From Bacillota bacterium (GTDB lineage: Bacteria > Bacillota > Clostridia > Christensenellales > SZUA-584), in the NCBI GenBank assembly GCA_023408075.1, contig JAEYKW010000046.1, forward strand, positions 1 through 64,000: a stretch of 64,000 nt of DNA, given 5' to 3'. The position numbers were made by a program, and so were the translations under genes. Every line of letters starts with the position of its first letter. Position 1 is the stretch's first letter. The notes under the pieces were generated by a model. The model saw only the letters and a program-made list of their open reading frames with translations. It was not told the origin of the DNA and did no database searches. Positions 183 through 60,005 of this stretch are shown in pieces.

Positions 183-224
183 GACCACAATAAAGGCTGT
201 GATGGAGATCAGTAGTTAAAAACC

Positions 225-447
225 TGCTTTTTAGAGAGCCGTCGGGTGGTGCAAGACGGCAGGCGGTATTTGATGAACTCGCTCCGTAGCCGCTGTACCG
301 AAAGCTTTTCAGTAGGTGCAGACGTCGTGACTCAACGTTACACGAGGACGGGCATCATGTTGTGCCCTGATGAGCTGGCGGCTATTTAACCGCAAGCAGA
401 GTGGTAACGCGAAGTCTTTCGTCTCTGTATGACGAAGGGCTTTTTTT
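225..447 (+). promoter_or_regulatory. T-box riboswitch leader (probably Leu-specific) with terminator/antiterminator
   Basis: AGAGA/GA-motif region near 234, then a T-box-like sequence AGAGTGGTAACGCG (398-411; consensus GGGTGGTACCGCG). Terminator hairpin CTTTCGTC...GACGAAGG plus T-run at 416-447 lies immediately upstream of leuA. A possible CUC specifier sits in GAACTCGC. Confidence 0.5.
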
Positions 448-3856: not shown

Positions 3857-4136
3857 ATCTTCCGAGCGACAGAGAACATTCATCTTTTCCAAATATCCTC
3901 GGAGGGCGATAAGGGCGTAGACAGCCGCAAAGGCAATCCCTATAGCATATAGGAGAGGCTGTTGCGGTAGACGGAAAGCCCACGCAAAAAGCTTTTGACT
4001 CGGATGCGTTTCGCTTCGTCGTCATGCCACAGTTTTGCGCCGCTTTTCGCAGCCATGACAGGAAGTGGTTTTTCATAAAAAAAGGATTCCGGACATAAAT
4101 CCGAAACCCTTCTATAATCTTGGAATCCTCTTATCC

Positions 4137-4736
4137 TTATTTTCCGGACAGCGACACCGGCATACGCTTGAGTATGGCCATACCGAGCGGAATGGCCACC
4201 GCGAATTTGAGTATATCGAGCAGTATGAAAACGCCGTTGTACGAGATGATGATCGTGTCAAGCGCGACGCCTTTGCCCATATAGGCATTCAATATGATCG
4301 ACATATAAGTCACGCCGATCACATACATAACCGCAACGCAAAGCAGTGAATACCCGATGATTCGAAGAATCTGCGGCGCTGCGGGTTCTCCTGCCTTCCT
4401 GCCGATAAGAACCAGAATGTTGCGCCTCACGAGCAGGCTGATCAGCATGGCCGTCACGCAAAAACCGATGATGAACCCGAATGACGGCTGCAGGACATAG
4501 CCAAGGCCGCCGCCGTTCATAAACACCGGCAGGCCGACCAGCCCGATGGCGGCATACACGGCTTGAGATATGAGTGCGAATTTGGGCTCGAGCAGCAGAC
4601 CGGCCAGAAATATAAAGAAAGTCTGCAGCGTGAAGCTCATCGGCGTGCCGGGTATCGGAATCTTGATAAAAATTCCGGCGGCTGTGAGTGCGGCAAAAAG
4701 CGCGCAGAATACCATTTGTCTTGTTTTCATAAGCAC
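4137..4736 (-). CDS. bioY: Biotin transporter BioY (ECF-type S component)
   Basis: 199-aa polytopic membrane protein. The IPIPGTPMSFTLQTFFIFLAGLLL motif is typical of BioY. GAGGTG RBS. Confidence 0.7.
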   Translation of the reverse strand: MLMKTRQMVFCALFAALTAAGIFIKIPIPGTPMSFTLQTFFIFLAGLLLEPKFALISQAVYAAIGLVGLPVFMNGGGLGYVLQPSFGFIIGFCVTAMLISLLVRRNILVLIGRKAGEPAAPQILRIIGYSLLCVAVMYVIGVTYMSIILNAYMGKGVALDTIIISYNGVFILLDILKFAVAIPLGMAILKRMPVSLSGK

Positions 4737-8680: not shown

Positions 8681-9116
8681 GTAAAAAAGCCGAAGATTAT
8701 GCGGCTTATACTGCTGGAAAAGCAACAAAACGTCATTCCGATGGAGCGTAAGCGGAAGAGGAATCCCATGATTAAGAGCATTAGTATTCGGGATGCTCTC
8801 CGCCTGGCAATCGTGTCACTCCGCTCTTCATTAACGCGGTGGAATGCATGATATAGTATGGTTCTCATAAAGTTGAGTTGCAATTGTATCCACCTTCAAA
8901 CTGAGAAGATTAAGTATTTAACTAAGATGCAAGCTGTCACGGCAGTTGGGCGGCGGGAGGAAAAGCACTGCCACTTCCTCTGCGGAGGCGTGGATTGAAG
9001 AGAGGATAAGTTTCCTCCGGGGGGCGCCGGCTCTTGACAGACGCCCTCATAGGTATGACTTGTGAGAGATGATAAAGCTTGTTGATATTATGCGAGCTTA
9101 AGGCTATATGCGCAGA

Positions 9117-14348: not shown

Positions 14349-15338
14349 ATGAAGCGCAGATTATTAATACTCGGCATTGCCGCCATATTTATTTTGGCGC
14401 TGCTGCCAACAGCCGTACTGGCGTACGATTCCGGCGGCGAGACGTACAACGCCCACGATTACAACGCGATGGTAAACTTCTTGAACCAGCCTTCGGCAGT
14501 CAAGGGTCAGACAAACGCTCAGCGGCTTGGCTACGATATATCGCAGCCCGAAACGTGGACCGATGTTGTTTGGAGTGATGATACGGAAAAACGCCTTGTG
14601 CAAATCGGCTCGGAAAGCGGCGCGAGCGCCTGGACCAGTAAAAGACTGGCAGGCTCCATGGACCTCTCAAACTGCACCGCACTTGAAAAAATCAATTGTG
14701 ATTCAAACAGCATGACTGCGCTTGACGTAAGCGGTTGCACGGCGCTTCAAGATCTGAATTGCATGGACAATCAACTGACAGCGCTCGATATAAGCGGATG
14801 TACTGTGCTTGTCAACCTGATATGCAACTTTAACATGTTGACAACGCTCGATATTAGCGCAAATACGGCGCTTGAGGATCTGGCATGCTATGGTAATCAG
14901 CTTGCATTGCTCGATGTGAGCACAAATAAGGAACTTAAAATATTGGTATGCAGTTACAACCGACTGACAGCGCTCGATGTGAGCGCAAACACGGCGCTTC
15001 AAAATCTGTCTTGCAGCCAAAACCAGCTTGCACTGCTCGATGTGAGCACAAACACAGCACTTAAATATCTTGATTGCCGTGAAAACCAGCTGACAACACT
15101 CGATGTGAGTCAATGCACGGCGCTTATAGATATGGATTGTGGTGGAAACCAGCTCACAGCGCTCAATTTAAGCGAGTGCACGGCGCTTCAAAAGCTCAAA
15201 TGTGATGAATCAGTTGCGGTAACGGGATTTACACCGCTCTGGGTGTATTTCGAGTACGGCTTAGGGCTTCTTGTCCTTGGCGCTGTAACGGCATGGATAC
15301 TGATCCGCCGCAGGCGGAAGAAACGCGCTAATCACTAA
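14349..15338 (+). CDS. Cell-surface leucine-rich-repeat protein with signal peptide and C-terminal TM anchor
   Basis: Signal peptide, N-terminal cap domain (YNAHDYNAMVNFLNQ...), about eight 22-residue LRRs (LTALDVSxxTALQxLxCxxNQ) and a C-terminal hydrophobic helix plus RRRRKKR. Confidence 0.75.
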   Translation: MKRRLLILGIAAIFILALLPTAVLAYDSGGETYNAHDYNAMVNFLNQPSAVKGQTNAQRLGYDISQPETWTDVVWSDDTEKRLVQIGSESGASAWTSKRLAGSMDLSNCTALEKINCDSNSMTALDVSGCTALQDLNCMDNQLTALDISGCTVLVNLICNFNMLTTLDISANTALEDLACYGNQLALLDVSTNKELKILVCSYNRLTALDVSANTALQNLSCSQNQLALLDVSTNTALKYLDCRENQLTTLDVSQCTALIDMDCGGNQLTALNLSECTALQKLKCDESVAVTGFTPLWVYFEYGLGLLVLGAVTAWILIRRRRKKRANH

Positions 15339-17156: not shown

Positions 17157-17359
17157 GAGCGGCGGTTTTAAAACCGCCGCTCTGCTTGATAAAAAATCCC
17201 ACCCTGTCATGCTGAGGAGCGTAGCGACGTGAGCATCCCATGGCTAAACGCGTATAACATGGGATTTTTCGATCGCTTACGCTCACTCAAAATGACGTTT
17301 AGTACTTTGTCAGCAGCCTGAACGGCGGTTTTAAAACCGCCGCTCTGCTTATTTTTCAG
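17157..17359. repeat. MITE-like palindromic element, copy 1 (137-bp core flanked by a duplicated 26-bp hairpin)
   Basis: Core 17183-17319 has imperfect terminal inverted repeats (GTCATGCTGAGGAGCGTAGCGACGTG / revcomp GTCATTTTGAGTGAGCGTAAGCGATCG) and is about 90% identical to 53115-53281. Flanked on both sides by (G)AGCGGCGGTTTTAAAACCGCCGCTC. Confidence 0.55.
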
Positions 17360-29081: not shown

Positions 29082-29456
29082 ATGATACCCAAAATTTCCG
29101 ACTCTGAGCTGGAAGTCATGCGGTTGCTTTGGCGCGAAGAGCGCCCCTTGTCGTTTGCCGAGATACGCACGGAGCTTGAAAGCAAAACCAAATGGACTAA
29201 ATCCACGATTCAAACACTTGTGGTTCGCTTGCGCGACAAGGGCGCTGTCAGCACACAAACCAACTATGTAACTTTGTACAGTCCCGCCGTCACCGAGCAG
29301 GAATATGTATTGGCAGAGGGTCAATTGTTTCTGGATAAGCTGTTTAAAGGGAACGCGAAAAAGCTTGTCGCGTCATTGTGTGAAAACGGACAGTTAAACG
29401 AAAGCGACATCGACGAATTAAAGCAGTTTTTCAAAATGGAGGACTGTCAAAAATGA
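29082..29456 (+). CDS. blaI: BlaI/MecI/CopY-family transcriptional repressor
   Basis: Winged helix SDSELEVMRLLW...SFAEI...TKSTIQTLVVRLRDKG and a C-terminal dimerisation helix. Confidence 0.85.
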   Translation: MIPKISDSELEVMRLLWREERPLSFAEIRTELESKTKWTKSTIQTLVVRLRDKGAVSTQTNYVTLYSPAVTEQEYVLAEGQLFLDKLFKGNAKKLVASLCENGQLNESDIDELKQFFKMEDCQK

Positions 29457-31333
29457 TCATATCACAATTGAGCGACATTGTTTGCACGATTATGATTATG
29501 TCACTCTCCGGCAGCGCTCTCATACTGCTGTTGTTTGCATTAAAACCGCTCATACGTCATCAATTGCCCAAGTCGGTGCAATATGTCTTGTGGCTCGTTA
29601 CGCTCGCGGCACTGCTCGTTCCGGTATCAAAGCTGATTGCCATACCCGATGCGCCGTCACATATCATAGTTGCACCGATCCAAAACGCCGTAGAACAAAA
29701 CAATATCGCAGGTAAAGAAGCAGCGGATACACTTTCTCAGACGAATACAGTTTCGCAGACAGATAGAACGACAACGAAAAATCCGGGTGTTAAGCCAGCG
29801 ATGCACCCTGTATTCACAGCGGCAACTGTATTGATGATAATCTACATGTTAATCGTATTGGTCGTGCTGTCTTATTACATCGTCAGCTACGTTCGGTTCA
29901 CAAGAAGAGTGCGCCGCCATCGCACCCGGGCGCGCATGGAAGAGCTTTATGAGCATGTCGGGTTATGCGGCGATACGATTGCGCCCCGTCTTTACCGCAG
30001 CGCGCTGACCACAACGCCGATGCTGATCGGGATATTTAAACCCGAGATCATATTGCCCGACCGTGAATATACGGGCGCACAATTTCAGAGTGTATTAAAG
30101 CATGAGCTAACTCATTTGCGCAGACGGGACATCATAGTCAAGTGGCTGTCCGTGTTGGCCCGAGCTGTGCACTGGTTCAATCCGCTCGTATGGCTTGCGT
30201 TGCGCGAAATCGACCGTATCTGTGAATTGTCCTGTGACGAGGCCGTGATACGAACAATGGATCACGCAGGAAAACGGAGTTATGGGGAAACATTGATTTC
30301 CATCGCAGCTGATAACAATGCATCGCGGGCCGTGCTTTCCACAACGATGTGTGAGGAAAAAGAGGTATTGAAAGAGCGGCTGAACCTCATTATGAAATAC
30401 CAAAAGCGGACATGGGTCACGCTCGTTATCTCGACGATTATTATATTCGCAGCTGTTTTCACAGCCTTTGTTATGGGCGCACGGGCGGCTTCTGCTCCTG
30501 GAGATAATATGGCTGGCGCAGTGGCTCCGGCATCCGTGCAGAGTGCTCTTCCATCGGATTCTGCGGCAGCCCAGCCGCATTCTCCCTCTGAAAAAGTTAT
30601 AGAGTTCAAGGATCCGATTGTGGAGAAGGTCATCAGCGCCAAATTGAAAAAGCCAGAAGGCGCGATCACCGAGCAGGACATGCTGAAGATTGAGGATTTT
30701 GAATTCAATGATGTAAGAATGAATATATACAGCGGGAAAATTAAAACGATAGAGGACCTGCGCTGGTGTGTGAATCTTAAGAGTATATTCTTAGCCAGTA
30801 CGGACATAACAGATATTTCCGCGCTATCCGGCATGCGGAATCTCGAATCCGTCTGTATCATGGAAAAGCTTGACGACTTCACTCCGCTGCTTGGCAACAA
30901 GAACCTTACCGAAATCCAACTCACAGGCGCTGCCGACAACTTTTTCAGGGATCTGATGAAAAATTGCAGAATGCTTTCCTCCGTGGGCCTGACTAAGTCA
31001 GACGTCAGCCCTGAAAGCATCCGAATGTTGGCAATGAACTTTAAGTTAACAACTCTTGTTATGAATTTCTGCTATATAAAGGACGTCACTCCTTTCATCG
31101 ACTTCACGGGGCTGGAATACTTGTCGCTTGAAAACAACTATATAAAAGATATCTCGGTGTTTGCGGCGAACCCGGAATTGAGCAAAGCCATCGATCTGAG
31201 CGGCAACCAAATCACCGACTGGAGCCCGCTGGAAGATATGACGTTGCTTAGCCTCAACGTATATGATAATCCGGTAACGAAAAGTCCAGCACTGGATAAA
31301 CTCGAAAAAAAAGGCTGTGAAATTTATAGGTAA
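29453..31333 (+). CDS. BlaR1/MecR1-family M56 metalloprotease signal transducer with C-terminal leucine-rich-repeat sensor domain
   Basis: 4 TM helices, HELTHLRRRD (HExxH) and the M56 core. After a further TM helix there is an internalin-like LRR domain (...LSLENNYIKDISVFAANPELSKAIDLSGNQITDWSPL) instead of a penicillin-binding domain. Overlaps blaI by 4 nt. Confidence 0.8.
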   Translation: MIISQLSDIVCTIMIMSLSGSALILLLFALKPLIRHQLPKSVQYVLWLVTLAALLVPVSKLIAIPDAPSHIIVAPIQNAVEQNNIAGKEAADTLSQTNTVSQTDRTTTKNPGVKPAMHPVFTAATVLMIIYMLIVLVVLSYYIVSYVRFTRRVRRHRTRARMEELYEHVGLCGDTIAPRLYRSALTTTPMLIGIFKPEIILPDREYTGAQFQSVLKHELTHLRRRDIIVKWLSVLARAVHWFNPLVWLALREIDRICELSCDEAVIRTMDHAGKRSYGETLISIAADNNASRAVLSTTMCEEKEVLKERLNLIMKYQKRTWVTLVISTIIIFAAVFTAFVMGARAASAPGDNMAGAVAPASVQSALPSDSAAAQPHSPSEKVIEFKDPIVEKVISAKLKKPEGAITEQDMLKIEDFEFNDVRMNIYSGKIKTIEDLRWCVNLKSIFLASTDITDISALSGMRNLESVCIMEKLDDFTPLLGNKNLTEIQLTGAADNFFRDLMKNCRMLSSVGLTKSDVSPESIRMLAMNFKLTTLVMNFCYIKDVTPFIDFTGLEYLSLENNYIKDISVFAANPELSKAIDLSGNQITDWSPLEDMTLLSLNVYDNPVTKSPALDKLEKKGCEIYR

Positions 31334-31520
31334 GGAACTTTATAGCCCCGCCGTCACCGAGCAGGAATATGTATTGACCGAGGGTCAATTGTTTCTTGAT
31401 AAACTGTTTAAAGGGAACGCGAAAAAGCTTGTCGCGTCGTTGTGCGAAAACGGACAATTAAGCGAAAGTGACATCGACGAATTAAAACAATTTTTCAAAA
31501 TGGAGGACTGTCAAAAATGA
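31317..31520 (+). pseudogene. Truncated blaI copy (C-terminal dimerisation half only) created by tandem duplication
   Basis: The 67-aa ORF is about 90% identical to residues 66-124 of the full BlaI and lacks the DNA-binding domain. Confidence 0.5.
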
Positions 31521-33421
31521 TCATTTCACAATTAAGCGATATCATTTGCACGATTCTCATTATGTCTCTCTCCGGCAGCGCTCTCATACTGTTATTGTTT
31601 GCATTGAAACCGCTCATACGCCATCGTTTGCCCAAATCGGTGCAATATGTCTTGTGGCTTGTCACGCTTGCGGCACTGCTCGTTCCCGTATCAAAGCTGA
31701 TTACCATACCCCAAGCGCCGTCAGATATCATAGTTGCACCGATTCAAAATGCCGTGGAACAAAATAATGTTCTGGTTCAGGAAGAAACAAATATGGTGCC
31801 GCAGACGGACACAAATACAGTGCCGCAGACGGACACAACGACAGCAAAAAGTCCGGCTGTGAAACCGGCGATGAACCCTGTCATAACAGCCACAACCGTA
31901 CTGATGTTGGTCTATATATTAATTGTATTGGTCGTGCTGGCTTATTACATAGCCACCTACGTTCGTTTCACAAGAAGAGTGCGCCGGCACCGCACCCGGG
32001 CGCGTATGGAAGAGCTTTATGAGCATGTCGGGTTATGCGGCGATACGATTGCGCCTCGCCTTTACCGCAGCGCGCTGGCCACAACGCCGATGCTGATTGG
32101 AATTCTTAAACCTGAGATCATATTGCCTGACCGTGAATATACCGACACACAGATGCAGAGTGTATTGAAACATGAGTTAACTCATTTGCGCAGACGGGAC
32201 ATTATTTTTAAATGGCTGTCTATATTCGCCCGCGCTTTGCATTGGTTCAATCCGCTCGTATGGCTTGCGCTGCGCGAAATCGACCGTATCTGTGAATTGT
32301 CCTGTGACGAGGCTGTGATACGGACTCTCGATCAAACGGGAAAACGGATTTACGGGGAAACGTTGATTTCCATCGCATCGGATACGAATGCATCGCGGGC
32401 CGTGCTTTCCACAACGATGTGTGAAGAAAAAGAGGTGTTGAAAGAGCGGCTGAACGTTATTATGAGATACCAAAAGCGCACATGGATCACTCTCGTTGTT
32501 TCGACGGTCATCGTGGTTGCGGCGGTTTGCGCCGTCTGTGTGTTCGGTGCGGGAGCGGCTCCGTCGGCGGCTCCGGGCAATAATAAGGTGGATGCATTAG
32601 CAGCAGTCGCCATACAGAGCCCGTCAGCAACGCCCGTGGCAACGCCGGAATCAGCCTCCTTGCAGAGCGTTTTGCCGTCGGCGGCGCCTGAAGAAGAGGC
32701 GCAGCCAGTATCTTTAGAGAGCCCATCGACGGCACCTGAGGCAGCAATGCAACCGGCACCCGTTCAAAGCTTTTTCGCATCACCTGCGCAAACACCGGAC
32801 CCGGATTATATAAATGAGCTGCGCAAAGATGCCATAGAAGTAAGCACAGAAGAAGAATTTGCTGATGCGCTGAATACTGCCGACGTCGTTGTATTGAAAA
32901 AAGATTTAACGCTAGATGATGAATTTGTGACATTAGAAGATTTAGAAGCGCTGGTTATTGATGAAGGCGTTACACTGACTGTCACGTGTTTGAATCTTCA
33001 TGCGACCTGTGAAATCGTCAACCTTGGAGAAATCATAGTGGCCGATTCCGGTCGATTGATGTTTTTCAGTGAACCGGATTATTCTACGATCGGTAAAATC
33101 AGTGTTATAGGGAAAGACGCCAAAATCTTATACGGTGCAGGCAAAGTCGGTGCTGAAGCAATTGCTTATTATCTGAGCGATGATTCGCTCTTTAATGAGC
33201 TTAGTTTAACCCCGCCTTACAGGGATGGCGAAATTGTTGAGATACTCGTTGACCAAGACATTGAGATAGCCGCCGGTAAAACTCTTTGGATGAATGCTCA
33301 TAGCGTACTGCATGTGGCAGAGGGAGTGACCCTTACCAATAACGGGGCCATACGCTATTATGTCGAACCCATCATCGACGGGAAAATCGATGGAATAGGA
33401 AAAGTCGTCTATGATGATTAA
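31517..33421 (+). CDS. BlaR1-family M56 signal transducer paralog with novel C-terminal extracellular domain ('domain X')
   Basis: The N-terminal 340 aa are about 90% identical to the first BlaR1. After a Pro/Ala/Ser-rich linker there is a 210-aa domain shared with the LysM protein at 33501 (…VIDEGVTLTVT..NLHATCEIVNLGEIIV.DSGR…). Confidence 0.8.
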   Translation: MIISQLSDIICTILIMSLSGSALILLLFALKPLIRHRLPKSVQYVLWLVTLAALLVPVSKLITIPQAPSDIIVAPIQNAVEQNNVLVQEETNMVPQTDTNTVPQTDTTTAKSPAVKPAMNPVITATTVLMLVYILIVLVVLAYYIATYVRFTRRVRRHRTRARMEELYEHVGLCGDTIAPRLYRSALATTPMLIGILKPEIILPDREYTDTQMQSVLKHELTHLRRRDIIFKWLSIFARALHWFNPLVWLALREIDRICELSCDEAVIRTLDQTGKRIYGETLISIASDTNASRAVLSTTMCEEKEVLKERLNVIMRYQKRTWITLVVSTVIVVAAVCAVCVFGAGAAPSAAPGNNKVDALAAVAIQSPSATPVATPESASLQSVLPSAAPEEEAQPVSLESPSTAPEAAMQPAPVQSFFASPAQTPDPDYINELRKDAIEVSTEEEFADALNTADVVVLKKDLTLDDEFVTLEDLEALVIDEGVTLTVTCLNLHATCEIVNLGEIIVADSGRLMFFSEPDYSTIGKISVIGKDAKILYGAGKVGAEAIAYYLSDDSLFNELSLTPPYRDGEIVEILVDQDIEIAAGKTLWMNAHSVLHVAEGVTLTNNGAIRYYVEPIIDGKIDGIGKVVYDD

Positions 33422-33500
33422 GAACCAAAATTAAGATTTATAGCGGATATATAGTAAAACGAATTGTTTAATAACTTAATGCCGATAATAGGAGGATGCC

Positions 33501-34427
33501 ATGAAAAGATATTTCGCTATCACAATTGTCATTATCTTCATCCTGTCCTTGCTGCCGGGTTATGCCAGCGCTGGCACTGCTGAGCCTTCTATAATAACAG
33601 CCCGTGCGACTGCGCCAGATCTTAAACCCGGCCAGATTTCTCAGATGTATGAGGAGTATACCGTCAAGCGCGGAGACAGCCTTTCTTCGATTGGCAGACA
33701 ATTTGGCGTATCATGGCGGGACATCGCGAAACTGAACGATATACATGGCCCGAAGTATACAATTCGACCCGGTCAAATATTAAAAATCCCACAGTCACTA
33801 ACATCATCCCCGTCTTATGTAAAACAGCTGCGCAAAAATGCAGTAAAAGTGAACACAGAAAAAGAATTTGCTAATGCGCTGAAAACAGCCTATGTCATTG
33901 AACTGAAAAAAGATATAACTTTAAGTGAAAATCTTGTTACATTAGACGATATCAATGCGCTGGTTATTGATGAAGGCGTTACGTTGACTGTCACATCTAT
34001 GAATTTTCATGCTACATGTGCAATCGTTAACCTTGGAGAAATCATAGTGAAGGACTCCGGCCGGATGATTTTTCACAGTGAACCGGATTACTCCTGTATC
34101 GGTAAAATCAGTACCAGAGGGAGATTCGCTCAAATTGCCTTCAATTCGGGAAAAATCGGTGCTGATGAAATGACTTATTTCCTGAGCGAAGATTCGCTGT
34201 ACGATTCGCTCAATATTGTCGCAAGTTCCTCCGATGGAAAACCTGTCGAGATATTGGTTGACCATGACATTGTCATCCCTGCCAGTAAAACCCTTTGGAT
34301 AAATTCTGGAAGCGTTTTGCATGTGTCAAAGGGAGTGAAGCTAACCAATAACGGTACCATAAGCTATTTTAACGAACCTATCATTGACGGGAAAATCGTT
34401 GGAATAGGAGAAGTCATTGATAACTAG
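33501..34427 (+). CDS. Secreted LysM-domain protein carrying 'domain X' (shared with BlaR1 paralog 2)
   Basis: Signal peptide and LysM (YTVKRGDSLSSIGRQFGVSWRDIAKLN...ILKIP). The C-terminal 210 aa are about 55-60% identical to the BlaR1b sensor domain. Confidence 0.7.
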   Translation: MKRYFAITIVIIFILSLLPGYASAGTAEPSIITARATAPDLKPGQISQMYEEYTVKRGDSLSSIGRQFGVSWRDIAKLNDIHGPKYTIRPGQILKIPQSLTSSPSYVKQLRKNAVKVNTEKEFANALKTAYVIELKKDITLSENLVTLDDINALVIDEGVTLTVTSMNFHATCAIVNLGEIIVKDSGRMIFHSEPDYSCIGKISTRGRFAQIAFNSGKIGADEMTYFLSEDSLYDSLNIVASSSDGKPVEILVDHDIVIPASKTLWINSGSVLHVSKGVKLTNNGTISYFNEPIIDGKIVGIGEVIDN

Positions 34428-37173: not shown

Positions 37174-39849
37174 ATGAAAAAGCTTAGTCTCTTTCTCGTG
37201 TTGTTGTTACTCATTTCTATGTTCCCATTACAGGCATTGGCTGCCGATGAAAACAACGACAGCTATAACGATCACGATGTGGCGCAGATAAGCGCATTTT
37301 TGAATCAAACGTCTTCCGGCTTAACCAACGCGGAAATACTCGGTTATGCCGACCCAAATGATCCGGCGATATGGAGCGATGTCTCTTGGGTTTCAGTGGA
37401 TGGTGAACAACGCGTTCAGAGCATCAACTGGGGCTTTAAGGATACCGCAGGAGTGCTGGACCTTTCGGGATGCACGGCCTTGACCGAACTGTATTGTCTC
37501 TCGATCGGGCTGACCTCTCTGGATGTGAGTGGATGCACCGCTTTAAGCACGCTATCATGCGAATTTAATTCGCTGACCAGCCTCGATGTCAGCACCTGCA
37601 GCTCGCTCAGTCAGCTTTCTTGTTATGTTAATGCTATTGAAACATTAAATGTGAGTGGCTGCAGCAATTTGACATGGCTGAATTGTTCTGAAAATAAACT
37701 CACACAGCTCGATGTGAACAGCTGTGCCAATCTTGGCGATCTTGATTGCAGTCATAACAATTTGTCGTCGTTGGATGTGAGCGGCTGCCCTCTGGGATAC
37801 TTATCATGTACTGAAAACCCGCTGAAACAGATTCACGCTGTTATAGAGGGAGAGGATGTCAAACTGAACGCATCAGCAGGATATCTTAAGTTATCTTATT
37901 TGGCTTACGACATCGAAGGTGAGATGTACGTCGATAGATATTCCGCGTCGGCTGTCCCTGACAGCATGCCGTGCTCCGGGTGGACGGGAATGCAGGACGG
38001 GGTGTTATTCTCGTCAGACGATTCCAATATCGATCTTGAAATCGGCTGTTCATACGACATTACCGCGAATTTTGCGAGCGGAACCGTATACAACGACCAT
38101 GACGTCACAAAGATGCAGGTATTCCTCAATAAAGAGCCTTTAGAGGGACCAAATTACATGCAGCTGGGTTATGACGTTGACGACCCGTCCACCTGGAACG
38201 ATGTGACTTGGGTGGCTTCGCCCGAAGGCCTGCGCATATCGGCGGTTGAATGGAACGAAAGACAAGCCGTCGGCGGTACGCTCGATCTTTCCGGCTGCGC
38301 CTATCTTGAGTCTGTCGATTTTTACGGTAACGAGCTTCATGGGCTTAATTTGAACGGCTGTGCCGCGCTTAAGAATGTTTCCTGCAACGATAATTATCTT
38401 GATACGCTGAGTCTAAGCGGATGCGACGAGTTAACAAGCTTAAAGCTCAACAACAACAACGGGCTTCTCATTGCGCTTGAGCTGCAGGGGTATACAAAGC
38501 TTGAGCACCTTGAGTGCGTACAAAGTCTTCTCGATACACTTGATGTTGGCGGCTGCACGGCACTCACATATCTTGATTGCAGCAACACTTATGAGTACAA
38601 TCGCAATTTTATCAACACTCTTGACCTGAGCGACAGCACGGGGCTGACAACGCTGAAATGTGCAGGCAATCCTCTGGCTCGTATAAGCGCGATTATGAAC
38701 GATACTGTGATAGATCTTACCGCCGGAGGGTGGGGATATGTCGCATTATCTGAGGGCGGAGAGACAGCTTATACGGTGCAAGTGCCCGATACTCAACCGT
38801 TTTCAAGCTGGATAGGCACACAGGACGGCTCCCCGTTCTTTTCAGCCGAATCGACAATAAATTTAACGCCCGGCTCCGAATATGTCCTGATGGCGAATTT
38901 CGGTTACGGCGTTTTTTACGACGGCAACGGAGCGACGGGCGGCACAGTACCCGATGGCGGCAGACACAACGCGGGGGATTCCATTGGGGTGCGCAGCAAC
39001 TCGGGCAGCCTTGAGCGAGCGGGTTTTGAATTTGCAGGCTGGAACACGGCGGCTGACGGCAGCGGCACATCATACAGCGAGGACTCATCGATGATGATGC
39101 CCGCAGAGAACATCACGCTGTACGCGGTTTGGGAGCCCATCGCCTATACCATCACCTATGACCTCGACGGAGGTGAGGCACAGAATCCCGCGACTTACAA
39201 TGCTCTGACCCCGGCATTCACGCTGAATAATCCTACGAAACTGGGATATGTGTTTGCGGGCTGGACGGGAACGGACCTTGCGAATGCGGCGATGAGCGTC
39301 AGCTTCCCGGCGGGGTCCATAGGCGACAGGGCTTACACAGCAAACTGGGCGCAGAACACAGTATACACCGTCACATTCGATGCGAAGAACGGGAGCGCGG
39401 TGGACAGCATTGAGGTGAATGCGGGAGGGACAATTGAAACCGCCCCTGTCACGAGCCGGTTCGGTTATAACTTTACCGGCTGGTATACGAAGAAGGGAGT
39501 GCTCATAACGTTCCCATATCATGTAACGGGCAGCGTGACGCTTTATGCGGGGTGGGAGAAGCAGCCAAAGACAGCATACCTTTCGGATGTTGAACTCTCG
39601 TCTGGCACTCTCGATTCAAACTTTTCGAATTCGAAATACCTCTATTTAATAAGGCTGCCCGAGAGTGAGACGAGCTTTACGCTGACCCCGGTTAAAGAGT
39701 ATGATGGCGCTTCGATGTCGATAAACGGGGAATCCACATCGAGTTACACGGTTAACCTTGAAAACCATAGGAATGCGCTGATATGCGTGATCGTGCAAAA
39801 CGGCAAAAGCATAAGGCTGTATACTTTCATCGTGCACAGAGGAAGATGA
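37174..39849 (+). CDS. Large secreted LRR protein with Listeria-Bacteroides repeats and C-terminal cadherin-like beta-sandwich domain
   Basis: Signal peptide and two copies of the cap+LRR module seen in the 14349 gene. Also 3-4 Listeria-Bacteroides (Flg_new) repeats (GY.FAGW..). C-terminal LS.GTLDSNFSNSKYLY...FTLTPV is cadherin-like. Confidence 0.75.
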   Translation: MKKLSLFLVLLLLISMFPLQALAADENNDSYNDHDVAQISAFLNQTSSGLTNAEILGYADPNDPAIWSDVSWVSVDGEQRVQSINWGFKDTAGVLDLSGCTALTELYCLSIGLTSLDVSGCTALSTLSCEFNSLTSLDVSTCSSLSQLSCYVNAIETLNVSGCSNLTWLNCSENKLTQLDVNSCANLGDLDCSHNNLSSLDVSGCPLGYLSCTENPLKQIHAVIEGEDVKLNASAGYLKLSYLAYDIEGEMYVDRYSASAVPDSMPCSGWTGMQDGVLFSSDDSNIDLEIGCSYDITANFASGTVYNDHDVTKMQVFLNKEPLEGPNYMQLGYDVDDPSTWNDVTWVASPEGLRISAVEWNERQAVGGTLDLSGCAYLESVDFYGNELHGLNLNGCAALKNVSCNDNYLDTLSLSGCDELTSLKLNNNNGLLIALELQGYTKLEHLECVQSLLDTLDVGGCTALTYLDCSNTYEYNRNFINTLDLSDSTGLTTLKCAGNPLARISAIMNDTVIDLTAGGWGYVALSEGGETAYTVQVPDTQPFSSWIGTQDGSPFFSAESTINLTPGSEYVLMANFGYGVFYDGNGATGGTVPDGGRHNAGDSIGVRSNSGSLERAGFEFAGWNTAADGSGTSYSEDSSMMMPAENITLYAVWEPIAYTITYDLDGGEAQNPATYNALTPAFTLNNPTKLGYVFAGWTGTDLANAAMSVSFPAGSIGDRAYTANWAQNTVYTVTFDAKNGSAVDSIEVNAGGTIETAPVTSRFGYNFTGWYTKKGVLITFPYHVTGSVTLYAGWEKQPKTAYLSDVELSSGTLDSNFSNSKYLYLIRLPESETSFTLTPVKEYDGASMSINGESTSSYTVNLENHRNALICVIVQNGKSIRLYTFIVHRGR

Positions 39850-52827: not shown

Positions 52828-52949
52828 CGGGTTGCGATAAACATTTGGCTTGTTGATCTTGTATCGATTTTAGCCTATAACGAGTGCGGGGGAGAGCATT
52901 GGCCGTCCGCGATGTACATCTGCAATCCTCCGTCGCGCTGCGCGCGCCA

Positions 52950-52980
52950 CCTCCTTTCAAAAAGGAGGCTTTTTTCTATG
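52950..52980 (+). terminator. Rho-independent terminator (CCTCCTTtcaaAAAGGAGG + T-run)
   Basis: Perfect 7-bp stem followed by CTTTTTTCT; lies downstream of the hydrogenase gene. Confidence 0.5.
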
Positions 52981-53095
52981 CATTTCAAACTGCCGCGTTT
53001 TTAAGGCTCCTCGTAGGAGTCGGCAGTGAAGCTGACTGAGGATTGATCTGGAAATTACTTTAACAATGACAATCCTCTGTCGCGCTGCGTACGCA

Positions 53096-53301
53096 CCTCC
53101 TTTTAAAAAGGAGGCCAGCTTGATGAAAAAACCCACCCTGTCATGCTGAGGAGCGTAGCGACGTGACTACGAAGTGGAAAGCATCCCATGGCTAATCGCG
53201 TTTAACATGGGATTTTAGTCCACTGCGTAGTCGATCGCTTACACTCACTCAAAATGACTTTTAGTACTTTGTCAGCAGCCTAACCTCTTTCAAAAAGGAG
53301 G
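53096..53301. repeat. MITE-like palindromic element, copy 2 (167-bp core flanked by a duplicated CCTCCTTT-AAAAAGGAGG hairpin)
   Basis: Core 53115-53281 matches 17183-17319 and carries two complementary 15-nt insertions (GACTACGAAGTGGAAA / AGTCCACTGCGTAGTC) that extend the central stem. Confidence 0.55.
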
Positions 53302-53465
53302 CTTTTTTCTATGTATTCCATGCTGCTGCGTTTTTGAGATTCCGATTTGTGGCGCGGCGATCAAAATTGAAATTTATCAATCGTCTAAGCCATGTTAAAC
53401 ATTTTTTTACATGGTTTTTTTATTTTGCGGCAGAATAAGGATACGCATTAAACCGGGAGAAGAAC

Positions 53466-57505: not shown

Positions 57506-57848
57506 TCCGAATCTCATCTGCCGTCCATAACAAAATAAGAAGTTTCATGGCTATGGAAAGTCACTCAATCGGTCATCCAGTCCACTATGTTTTATTCGCA
57601 ATATTCATTCACTGCGCCAGTGGATAGTATGACCGATCATGCGGCTTTCCGCTTACTGTGTGCGTTAGCGCATGATCGTTCTGAGTGAACGACAGAGCAT
57701 CGACAACGCAGTGGACTGAAATCCCATGTTTATGGCGATTTATCATGGGATGCGTTCACTTACGTGGTGGATGGAATGACAGTTGGTTTGTTTCATCAAT
57801 CTTACCGTCCATTGGCAATGGGTGGTTTTCTATTTTTGTCTAATTATA

Positions 57849-59618: not shown

Positions 59619-60005
59619 ATATCGGTGATAGACGTCAAAAGTTCTTATACAACAAAAAACGTTCCCAACAATGAAATGTCACAGAGTATCAAACACTCTT
59701 ATGTGGCCCCTCTGACGACGACACGAATAAGGAGGGCTGTGACTGGGGGGAAAAGGCTTATGACCGGTCATTTCCCGGGTATTTCATGACACTTCCCGAT
59801 TTATCTCTTTGGGATAGAGCATCTGACTGTCTCGAAGGGGTGGAATGGGAAGCTGCTTGGGCTTATTGACAGCCTGACGTTCCCAATAAGGAGACGTCAG
59901 GCTGCTAAAAAGTGACGTGTGTCATATCGATGGAACGTAAGCAATCGACGACAAAGGCTCCATTCAATAACGCGCTTTACATGCAAATCGGCTTCGCGGC
60001 GTCGC

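Follow-up and report, generated by a model that had tools for sequence, protein, structure and literature searches.

An intergenic palindrome of 167 nt in the window (the whole 64,000-nucleotide stretch of Bacillota DNA analyzed here) is likely to be the long form of a palindromic, MITE-like transposon that is non-autonomous, targets terminator hairpins, and carries an optional module that its two arms have lost independently of each other. This element, which we call copy 2, has a shorter intact relative in the same window (copy 1), also intergenic and on the + strand, and the features of both are listed in Table 1.

Table 1. Positions of the element copies, their modules, and their target hairpins in the window
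Feature	Coordinates	Strand	Basis
Sixth copy, very degenerate, directly after a terminator hairpin	3944..4086	-	weak nhmmer match
Degenerate copy with a different insert of ~18 nt, ACGATTGCCAGGCGGAGA, at the same 5'-arm site, without the 3' module	8685..8851	-	nhmmer, E = 1e-16
Copy 1 left target hairpin, AGCGGCGGTTTTAAAACCGCCGCT	17158..17181	+	family comparison, inverted-repeat pair
Copy 1, short form, 139 nt	17182..17320	+	alignment, family comparison, folds
Copy 1 right target hairpin, AACGGCGGTTTTAAAACCGCCGCT, then CTGCTTATTTTT	17321..17344	+	family comparison
Repeat B1, uninterrupted paralogue of the copy 2 target with the same hairpin once (empty site for copy 2)	52925..53010	+	alignment; terminator-like
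Copy 2 left target hairpin, ACCTCCTTTTAAAAAGGAGGC, severed from the T-run	53095..53115	+	alignment; not scored as a terminator
Copy 2, long form, 167 nt, CAGCTTGATGAAAAAACCC ... GTCAGCAGCCTA	53116..53282	+	family comparison, alignments, folds
Conserved 5'-arm module, GTCATGCTGAGGAGCGTAGCGACGTGA	53140..53166	+	exact 22-mer in other genomes
5'-arm 14-nt module, CTACGAAGTGGAAA, not in copy 1	53167..53180	+	alignments; partnerless in L006 and L008
Central hairpin, ATCCCATG (53183-53190) / CATGGGAT (53207-53214), 16-nt loop	53183..53214	+	folds
3'-arm 14-nt module, AGTCCACTGCGTAG, complementary to the 5' module in inverted orientation apart from one A·G mismatch	53217..53230	+	partnerless in L001, L004, and L017
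Copy 2 right target hairpin, ACCTCTTTCAAAAAGGAGGC (53283-53302), then TTTTTT	53283..53308	+	alignment; terminator-like
Degenerate copy with both 14-nt modules (diverged), without the 22-mer module	57675..57800	-	profile match, alignment
3'-half remnant, abutting a hairpin with another element end on its far side	59890..59979	-	profile match, inverted-repeat scan

Copies 1 and 2 align easily apart from two gaps, and with the module columns removed their backbones diverge by 5%. Each gap corresponds to a segment present in copy 2 only: on the 5' arm CTACGAAGTGGAAA is flanked by ...GACGTGA and GCATCCC, and on the 3' arm AGTCCACTGCGTAG is flanked by GGGATTTT and TCGATCGC. Taken with the flanking GA/TC that both copies share, the segments (GACTACGAAGTGGA and TCCACTGCGTAGTC) form Watson-Crick pairs at 13 of 14 positions, the exception being an A·G mismatch, and by our own arithmetic complementarity of at least 13 of 14 is expected by chance with a probability of ~1.6e-7. 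A motif scan places the sequence at 53165-53178 on the + strand with 0 mismatches and at 53219-53232 on the - strand with 1 mismatch. The initial annotation put the element at 53115-53281, within one base of the limits given here, and described its two inserts as mutually complementary and 15 nt long; the complementarity stands, but the inserts are 14 + 14 nt, since the 16-mers compared there took in two neighboring bases that are also found in copy 1. They are inverted with respect to each other and are thus neither non-complementary nor a simple internal duplication, the two outcomes that would have spoken against that description. A tandem duplication was also considered as the source of the 5' module and rejected, the module having only a weak gapped likeness to the 12 nt that precede it.

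Both copies are predicted to fold as a single long hairpin around the ATCCCATG/CATGGGAT stem, which is invariant or nearly so among 14 family copies, and the inserts of copy 2 lie at mirror-image positions within one unbroken extension of that stem. The proposal that they lengthen the stem with pairing preserved is therefore borne out by the folds. The predicted free energies are -62.4 kcal/mol for copy 2 versus -47.4 kcal/mol for copy 1 as RNA, and -32.2 versus -26.1 kcal/mol as DNA; the z-scores range from -4.7 to -7.2 on both strands, and no shuffled sequence is as stable.

The flanks of the element point to transposition into hairpins. Nine of the eleven intact copies (copies 1 and 2 of the window, L001, L002, L004, L006, L008, L012, and L017) have a stem-loop directly repeated on their two sides, which spans 20-26 nt from stem foot to stem foot, give or take 1 nt. 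The repeated sequence is unrelated between loci; all of the targets are hairpins, and several have T-runs. At copy 1, for example, the hairpin A[G/A]CGGCGGTTTTAAAACCGCCGCT occurs at both flanks. Because the duplication tracks the feet of the stem whatever its sequence or length, the strand transfers appear to be positioned by DNA structure. Site-specific integration with an att core was considered and set aside, as the flanking repeats differ at each locus.

The site occupied by copy 2 can be compared with an uninterrupted version close by. Copy 2 lies inside the second unit of a local repeat, and the intact first unit, B1, corresponds to the left flank of copy 2 joined to its right flank with an overlap of exactly the hairpin. 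The homologous B1 hairpin is also uninterrupted in the relatives L130, L131, and L133. In a terminator consensus scan both the intact B1 hairpin and the distal hairpin of copy 2 are terminator-like, and the proximal hairpin, whose T-run is lost, is unscored. Among the family copies the T-run is found on either side of the element, and its orientation relative to the terminator is thus not fixed.

Comparison with related genomes also indicates mobility. Related genomes encode homologues, 86-89% identical, of the hydrogenase-like protein encoded beside the element, and no element copies are present in the syntenic loci of these relatives (17 loci, 260 kb), whereas the corresponding 21 kb of the window contains three. 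In the relatives a plain terminator lies between the genes for an ArsR-type regulator and an ABC transporter (TGCCGTCCATACGGACGGC-TTTT in L128 and TGCCGCCCATTTTTTAATGAGCGGC-TTTT in L126); at this site the window has an insertion of ~275 nt that includes the decayed copy at 57675-57800, with hairpin sequence on both sides. The orthologous terminator is intact in L126, L128, and L131, which provide empty sites for that copy. The element is therefore polymorphic for presence and absence between species. Short-read contigs of the organism from which the window derives break in or beside these repeats, and the presence of the element would explain such assembly breaks downstream of genes.

Further copies were recovered by searching one-genome-per-species bacterial assemblies with the exact 22-mer of the 5' arm, which occurs at 20 loci in four phyla. 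Ten of these loci belong to the same family and contribute eleven copies from five uncultured Bacillota metagenome-assembled genomes (MAGs), and the family is spread within a group of uncultured, spore-forming Bacillota. When a profile built from the family copies was searched against the window with nhmmer, six copies were found in the 64 kb, two of them intact and four decayed. All copies are intergenic and lie near housekeeping genes, including those for DJ-1/PfpI, SPFH, and DAO-Rieske proteins, a spore photoproduct lyase, and the hydrogenase-like protein.

The element has several attributes of a MITE. It is 139-167 nt long, well below 500 bp, and contains no ORF; it has terminal inverted repeats and a locus-specific target duplication, of unusual length in that it comprises an entire stem-loop, and its copies are dispersed and variably present. 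Its ends are 5'-CAG...CTG-3'. The terminal inverted repeats are imperfect, with CAGCTTGATGAAAAA pairing with the reverse complement CAGGCTGCTGACAAAG, and they co-vary between subfamilies, CAGAGTGTCGATAAAC occurring with CAGGCTGTCAAAAAAG. Scans of JGI metagenomes with the central hairpin and with a 27-mer of the 5' arm gave 0 matches, as did a search for the family in IMG/VR viral contigs; blastn against plasmids and phages gave no family match, a protein-word search with the spurious ORF that crosses copy 1 gave no candidates, and the conserved 15-mers of the element left no trace in the searchable literature.

The states of the 14-nt module bear directly on how its complementarity arose. We scored 13 copies from the window and the uncultured Bacillota MAGs, a small sample of mutually related sequences, and all four possible states occur. 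The module is present on both arms in four copies (copy 2, L002, L011a, and the 57675 copy), on neither arm in four (copy 1, L011b, L012, and L015), on the 5' arm only in two (L006 and L008), and on the 3' arm only in three (L001, L004, and L017). Presence on one arm is not associated with presence on the other (Fisher p = 0.59 for these 13 related copies). Copies with a single module are still predicted to fold as this hairpin, the orphan module forming a bulge (-53.7 and -51.5 kcal/mol). In the module helix of the both-arm copies 88.6% of cells are paired, no pair has changed on both sides, and none of the 12 module pairs has a compensatory change; each of the three both-arm copies in the alignment has the A·G position unpaired. 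A consensus fold of the whole element has a double change in only two of 27 pairs and an unfavorable covariation term of +0.59. All copies from outside the window were retrieved through the exact 22-mer, so that the 5' arm is invariant by ascertainment and these covariation tests are weakened.

The initial annotation took the paired inserts as coordinated indels that argue for selection on the hairpin, and the four unassociated states and the missing compensatory changes do not support that conclusion. A version of it in which the element is a selected RNA structure (a 3'-UTR stabilizer, a processing site, or a small RNA) and the inserts are a compensatory extension seems to us highly unlikely. 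Such a role would fit the folds, which are very stable on both strands, and the covarying stems that the 5'-arm stem-loop module has across phyla among the matches listed; moreover, the copies follow genes and stand between two terminator hairpins, one disabled and the other intact, and would thus be transcribed as part of a 3' UTR. Yet one-arm variants persist in several genomes, copies decay freely and occur in both orientations relative to the T-run, and the element is missing from orthologous sites in close relatives, none of which is favorable to a conserved RNA; nor is the covariation (two of 27 pairs, and none of 12 in the module helix, the 5' arm of the element being fixed by the search). 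Rfam is also silent: the sole match in the window at the gathering threshold is a T-box at 190-429, the element being unmatched, and searches with copies 1 and 2 returned nothing credible at E values up to 10. A hammerhead or other small ribozyme in CUGAGGAGCGUAGCGACG was considered separately and rejected on the misfit of its core and the empty Rfam result at E up to 10.

We favor instead the reading in which the two complementary segments look to be one optional module, mirror-placed on both arms and an old part of the element. Their complementarity follows from the architecture of the element, whose arms are inverted copies of one another, and not from compensatory evolution. In a neighbor-joining tree of the backbone, from which the module columns were removed, the three deepest lineages (L011a, w57670, and L002) are all both-arm, and the one-arm and no-arm states are confined to young subfamilies of near-identical copies. 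Since the three most divergent copies have both modules, it seems that the long form is old and that the short forms descend from it. We infer that within the Bacillota family the both-arm state is the older one and that the arms have lost the module independently and repeatedly, copy 2 having retained both modules and copy 1 having lost both. Beyond that family the direction is less secure, as relatives of the 5'-arm module in other phyla are short and lack the insert. The deletion boundaries mirror each other between the arms (14 + 14 nt), and repeated loss with identical boundaries needs a mechanism; direct repeats flanking the module that could explain a first loss were sought and none was found.

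A rival account of the symmetric states is templated (quasipalindrome) mutation, in which a 14-nt gain or loss is copied from one arm to the other by intra-strand template switching in the hairpin-folded element at replication or repair, with no selection involved. The work of Ripley and of Lovett is said to have established quasipalindrome correction and template switching in imperfect palindromes. Templated change is compatible with a MITE and differs from our reading only on how copies 1 and 2 came to diverge. It would account for the exact mirror-image boundaries, and copies 1 and 2, with no module and both modules respectively, differ by only 5% elsewhere, so that the two changes must have occurred within a short time. 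The one-arm intermediates, in which the orphan is bulged from an otherwise intact stem, are the substrate that the process requires, and the unrelated 18-nt insert in the decayed copy at 8685-8851, which occupies the same 5'-arm site, marks this junction as an indel hot spot. However, symmetric states are not enriched (eight symmetric copies, where 6.5 are expected, and five asymmetric ones; p = 0.59). In addition, the two modules never complement each other perfectly: three lineages have the same A·G mismatch, whereas templating predicts perfect pairing when the event takes place. We therefore regard templated mutation as a rather unlikely account of the difference between copies 1 and 2.

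Returning to the terminator-targeting transposon, its proposed mode of movement can be set out as follows. The element would insert at the stem-loops of intrinsic terminators, with strand transfer occurring at both feet of the stem and gap repair then duplicating the whole stem-loop of 20-26 nt. It would come to lie between two copies of the hairpin, of which only the copy bearing the T-run remains terminator-like. The structure recognized would probably be an extruded hairpin or cruciform, and the element would be mobilized by a DDE transposase that reads structure, acts in trans, and most resembles those of IS1182/IS1272; each arm would, by a presumed route, also lose its module. The suggestion in the initial annotation that a transposase recognizes the hairpin thus survives in spirit as far as the transposon is concerned, but not for the inner stem of the element, since the hairpin that is read is most plausibly the target terminator stem-loop.

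Searches of the window, the 20 genome loci, and the 17 syntenic loci revealed neither an autonomous element nor a transposase with matching ends, and the enzyme family is therefore an analogy. End-motif searches of the window and the loci returned element copies only, together with a solo 5'-end remnant in L017 near a GNAT gene; a long-range inverted-repeat scan detected no IS in the window, Pfam searches of 20 large window ORFs detected no transposase, and plasmid pRUM has no IS1182 copy. The analogy with an IS1182/IS1272-like DDE transposase that may act in trans is drawn from the behavior of the target. IS1272 and TnSha1, members of the IS1182 family in staphylococci, insert into hairpins, mostly terminators, that are recognized by structure rather than sequence (PMC5678879, PMC4923244). 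The model for this family, in which Wan et al. distinguish three outcomes, includes a branch that duplicates the stem-loop on both sides of the element (PMC5678879, PMC4923244). The element described here similarly has a stem-loop or terminator target chosen by structure, implied cuts at the base of the stem, and a Bacillota host; the likeness is one of target behavior, no IS1182-type transposase or matching inverted repeat having been found. IS1272 is nevertheless a 1.9-kb autonomous IS encoding a 548-aa transposase, and its documented cases delete the stem-loop without duplication (PMC5678879, PMC4923244), whereas our element is non-coding, 139-167 nt long, and flanked by a duplicated stem-loop in nine of 11 intact copies.

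Other systems share one or another of these properties. The IS1202 group, from a family with some members in Bacillota, makes target duplications of 16-28 bp and has Tn7-like ends, 5'-TGT...ACA-3', and no structural target is reported for this long-duplication group (PMC10132070). The 20-26-nt duplication of our element is similarly long, but its outermost bases are CAG...CTG, with TGT/ACA lying 5 nt inside the ends and in one subfamily only, and no partner transposase was found. Cas1-type integrases, as represented by CRISPR spacer acquisition and casposons (PMC5137440), duplicate a target of 14-37 bp, often palindromic, by staggered attack at its two borders. Duplication of the entire target is the point of likeness, as a mechanistic analogy only; our element differs in its ends, in the lack of a fixed target sequence, and in having neither Cas1 nor a casposase in its vicinity.

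The element can also be compared with palindromic MITEs such as ERIC, Correia, RUP, and BOX, which it resembles in being small, non-coding, intergenic, and highly paired, in having terminal inverted repeats and size variants, in its expected co-transcription within UTRs, and in its clustering and nesting with other repeats. These known elements make short duplications (e.g. TA) or none. They are the subject of several reviews of palindromic bacterial MITEs, in which terminator stem-loop targeting with duplication of the whole hairpin is not reported (PMC10969869, PMC3184786, PMC3049150).

We also considered whether the element might be related to REPINs and their RAYTs or be derived from an IS200/IS605 element, that is, an inverted REP-like doublet moved in single-stranded form by an HUH tyrosine transposase. 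REPINs (PMC3337134, PMC2817692) are reported to leave their target unduplicated and to rely on a RAYT gene present as a single copy; they also share with our element an extragenic location, many copies, and two inverted units that form one long hairpin. The whole element is indeed a hairpin, each arm has its own small stem-loop (ATGCT-loop-AGCAT), the conserved loop includes a GTAG tetranucleotide, and related hairpins in other phyla lack an obvious target duplication. Nonetheless, the long, locus-specific target repeat at nine of 11 intact Bacillota copies is not an HUH product, the flanks are duplicated and have no fixed short motif in common, whereas IS200/IS605-derived elements insert 3' of a fixed tetra- or pentanucleotide and do not duplicate it, GTAG is not conserved in the wider motif (GAAG is commoner among the matches listed), and no RAYT or TnpA gene is seen near any copy. 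An origin of this kind is most improbable.

A part of the 5' arm has a distribution much wider than that of the element. It belongs to a 32-nt unit consisting of GTC, a 5-bp stem, the loop GAGGAGCG(A/T)AGCGACG(A/T)(A/G), the complementary stem, and then C; in the short form of the element GTCATGCTGAGGAGCGTAGCGACGTGA continues as GCATC, which completes this unit common to other phyla. The unit occurs in MAGs of Bacillota, Chloroflexota, Bacteroidota, and Alphaproteobacteria, being identical in those of Alistipes and an alphaproteobacterium and near-identical in Chloroflexota, and among the matches listed its 18-nt loop is present in more than 100 IMG/VR viral contigs. Three internally complementary stems close the loop among the matches listed (ATTGC/GCAAT, ATGCT/AGCAT, and ATTCC/GGAAT), and the unit usually forms the 5' arm of a 70-150-nt hairpin ending in ...GCTCGCAATGAC. 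The unit belongs to no Rfam family, with no overlapping match to the related hairpins at 14 loci, and the searchable literature shows no trace of it. No recurrent neighboring gene was found, the only common neighbors being portal genes of related phages. An association with GIY-YIG nucleases was considered and dropped for want of such a recurrent neighbor.

In copy 2 the 5' module interrupts this unit exactly where loop and stem meet. It is conceivable, though distinctly unlikely, that the 32-nt unit is an undescribed structured motif, acting as RNA or single-stranded DNA and read by a widespread factor, and that the Bacillota element is its terminator-hopping carrier. Were this so, a 14-nt module at the loop/stem junction would alter the geometry of the motif.

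We have described here what is probably a palindromic MITE with the footprint of a duplicated terminator stem-loop. The main value of the family lies in its structure-guided target duplication and its cross-phylum module, and less in the paired inserts that first drew attention to it. Indels that complement each other within a palindromic repeat cannot by themselves be read as evidence of structural selection, and the family needs to be examined before such selection is proposed. The element offers many natural examples of a transposition outcome that has so far only been modeled, and it suggests a transposase guided by the structure of the DNA and not by its sequence. For the host, duplication of the stem-loop from foot to foot means that a working terminator is kept after each insertion. 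The upstream gene retains a distal hairpin and T-run terminator, and its 3' UTR acquires a very stable hairpin, which could alter the stability of the mRNA.

The stem-loop module in the 5′ arm of the element follows the pattern GTC-[5-bp stem]-GAGGAGCG(A/T)AGCGACG(A/T)(A/G)-[stem′]-C, in which an invariant loop is closed by three covarying stems, and it is common to MAGs of the Bacillota, Chloroflexota, Bacteroidota and Alphaproteobacteria. It is present in the window and in retrieved loci L003, L005, L009, L010, L013, L014, L016, L018-L020 and L025-L193, and the matches listed include more than 100 viral contigs. No Rfam family corresponds to the module, a literature search gave no match, and no recurrent adjoining gene was found in its neighbourhoods. 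The viral contig L028 also contains a DUF3800-VIII RNA, unrelated to the stem-loop motif at 4655-4677 of that contig. In the window, the T-box leader precedes two genes, one leuA-like (HMGL-like/LeuA_dimer) and the other of the aconitase family.

Features in the window and in retrieved loci (L-numbers)
Feature	Location	Rfam match
Stem-loop module of the element's 5′ arm	window 53140-53166 and 17206-17237	
One hairpin, ACGTTCCCAATAAGGAGACGT, with an element end on either side	window 59862-59912	
Unrelated, partly palindromic sequence (~150 nt)	window 57516-57675	
Spacer with nested repeats, hydrogenase-like/DAO-Rieske genes	window 52880-53360; L126 11236-11528; intergenic spacers of L130, L131, L133	
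Tandem pair of element copies	L011 4057-4376	
Solo 33-nt remnant of the element 5′ end, CAGCTTGATGATAAACCTCTTACCTTCATGGCT	L017 4698-4730	
T-box leader	window 190-429	RF00230, 128.7 bits
DUF3800-VIII RNA	L028 7078-7143	RF03075, 47.2 bits
Periodic repeats (period 63 nt) within leucine-rich-repeat surface-protein genes	window 14721-15140 and 37582-38580	
Tandem paralogous BlaR1-M56/LRR genes	window 29277-34099	

Among protein genes, the BlaR1-M56/LRR paralogues share 86-91% identity across 300-nt stretches.

The spacer that separates the hydrogenase-like gene from the DAO-Rieske gene varies in length across relatives, from 292 to 1023 nt, owing to other nested hairpin repeats. These include a CAATCCTCCGTC...GCTGACTGAGGATTG hairpin with inserts splitting it and repeatedly occurring TTTCCTCCCTCAGCCGCCTGCGGCGACAGCTCCCTCCAGAGGGA units, and the window 'B' repeat, whose intact first unit (52925-53010) serves as the empty site for copy 2 and whose second unit (53069-53343) is interrupted, belongs to the same set.

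The L011 pair, on the minus strand, lacks the hairpin between its copies, the 3′ and 5′ ends overlapping at the junction GTCAGCAAGCTGAAAAACCC, and its upstream copy is a divergent form with modules in both arms. In L017 the remainder of the element is absent after the 33-nt remnant, and the next gene encodes a GNAT acetyltransferase.

The partly palindromic sequence adjoining the decayed copy at 57675 is likewise missing at the orthologous site in relatives, and may be a second inserted element. At 59862-59912 the order is ...TTATTGACAGCCTG, hairpin, CAGGCTGCTAAAAAG..., suggesting that one terminator was hit by two insertions that have a hairpin copy in common; relatives have a plain terminator at the matching site.
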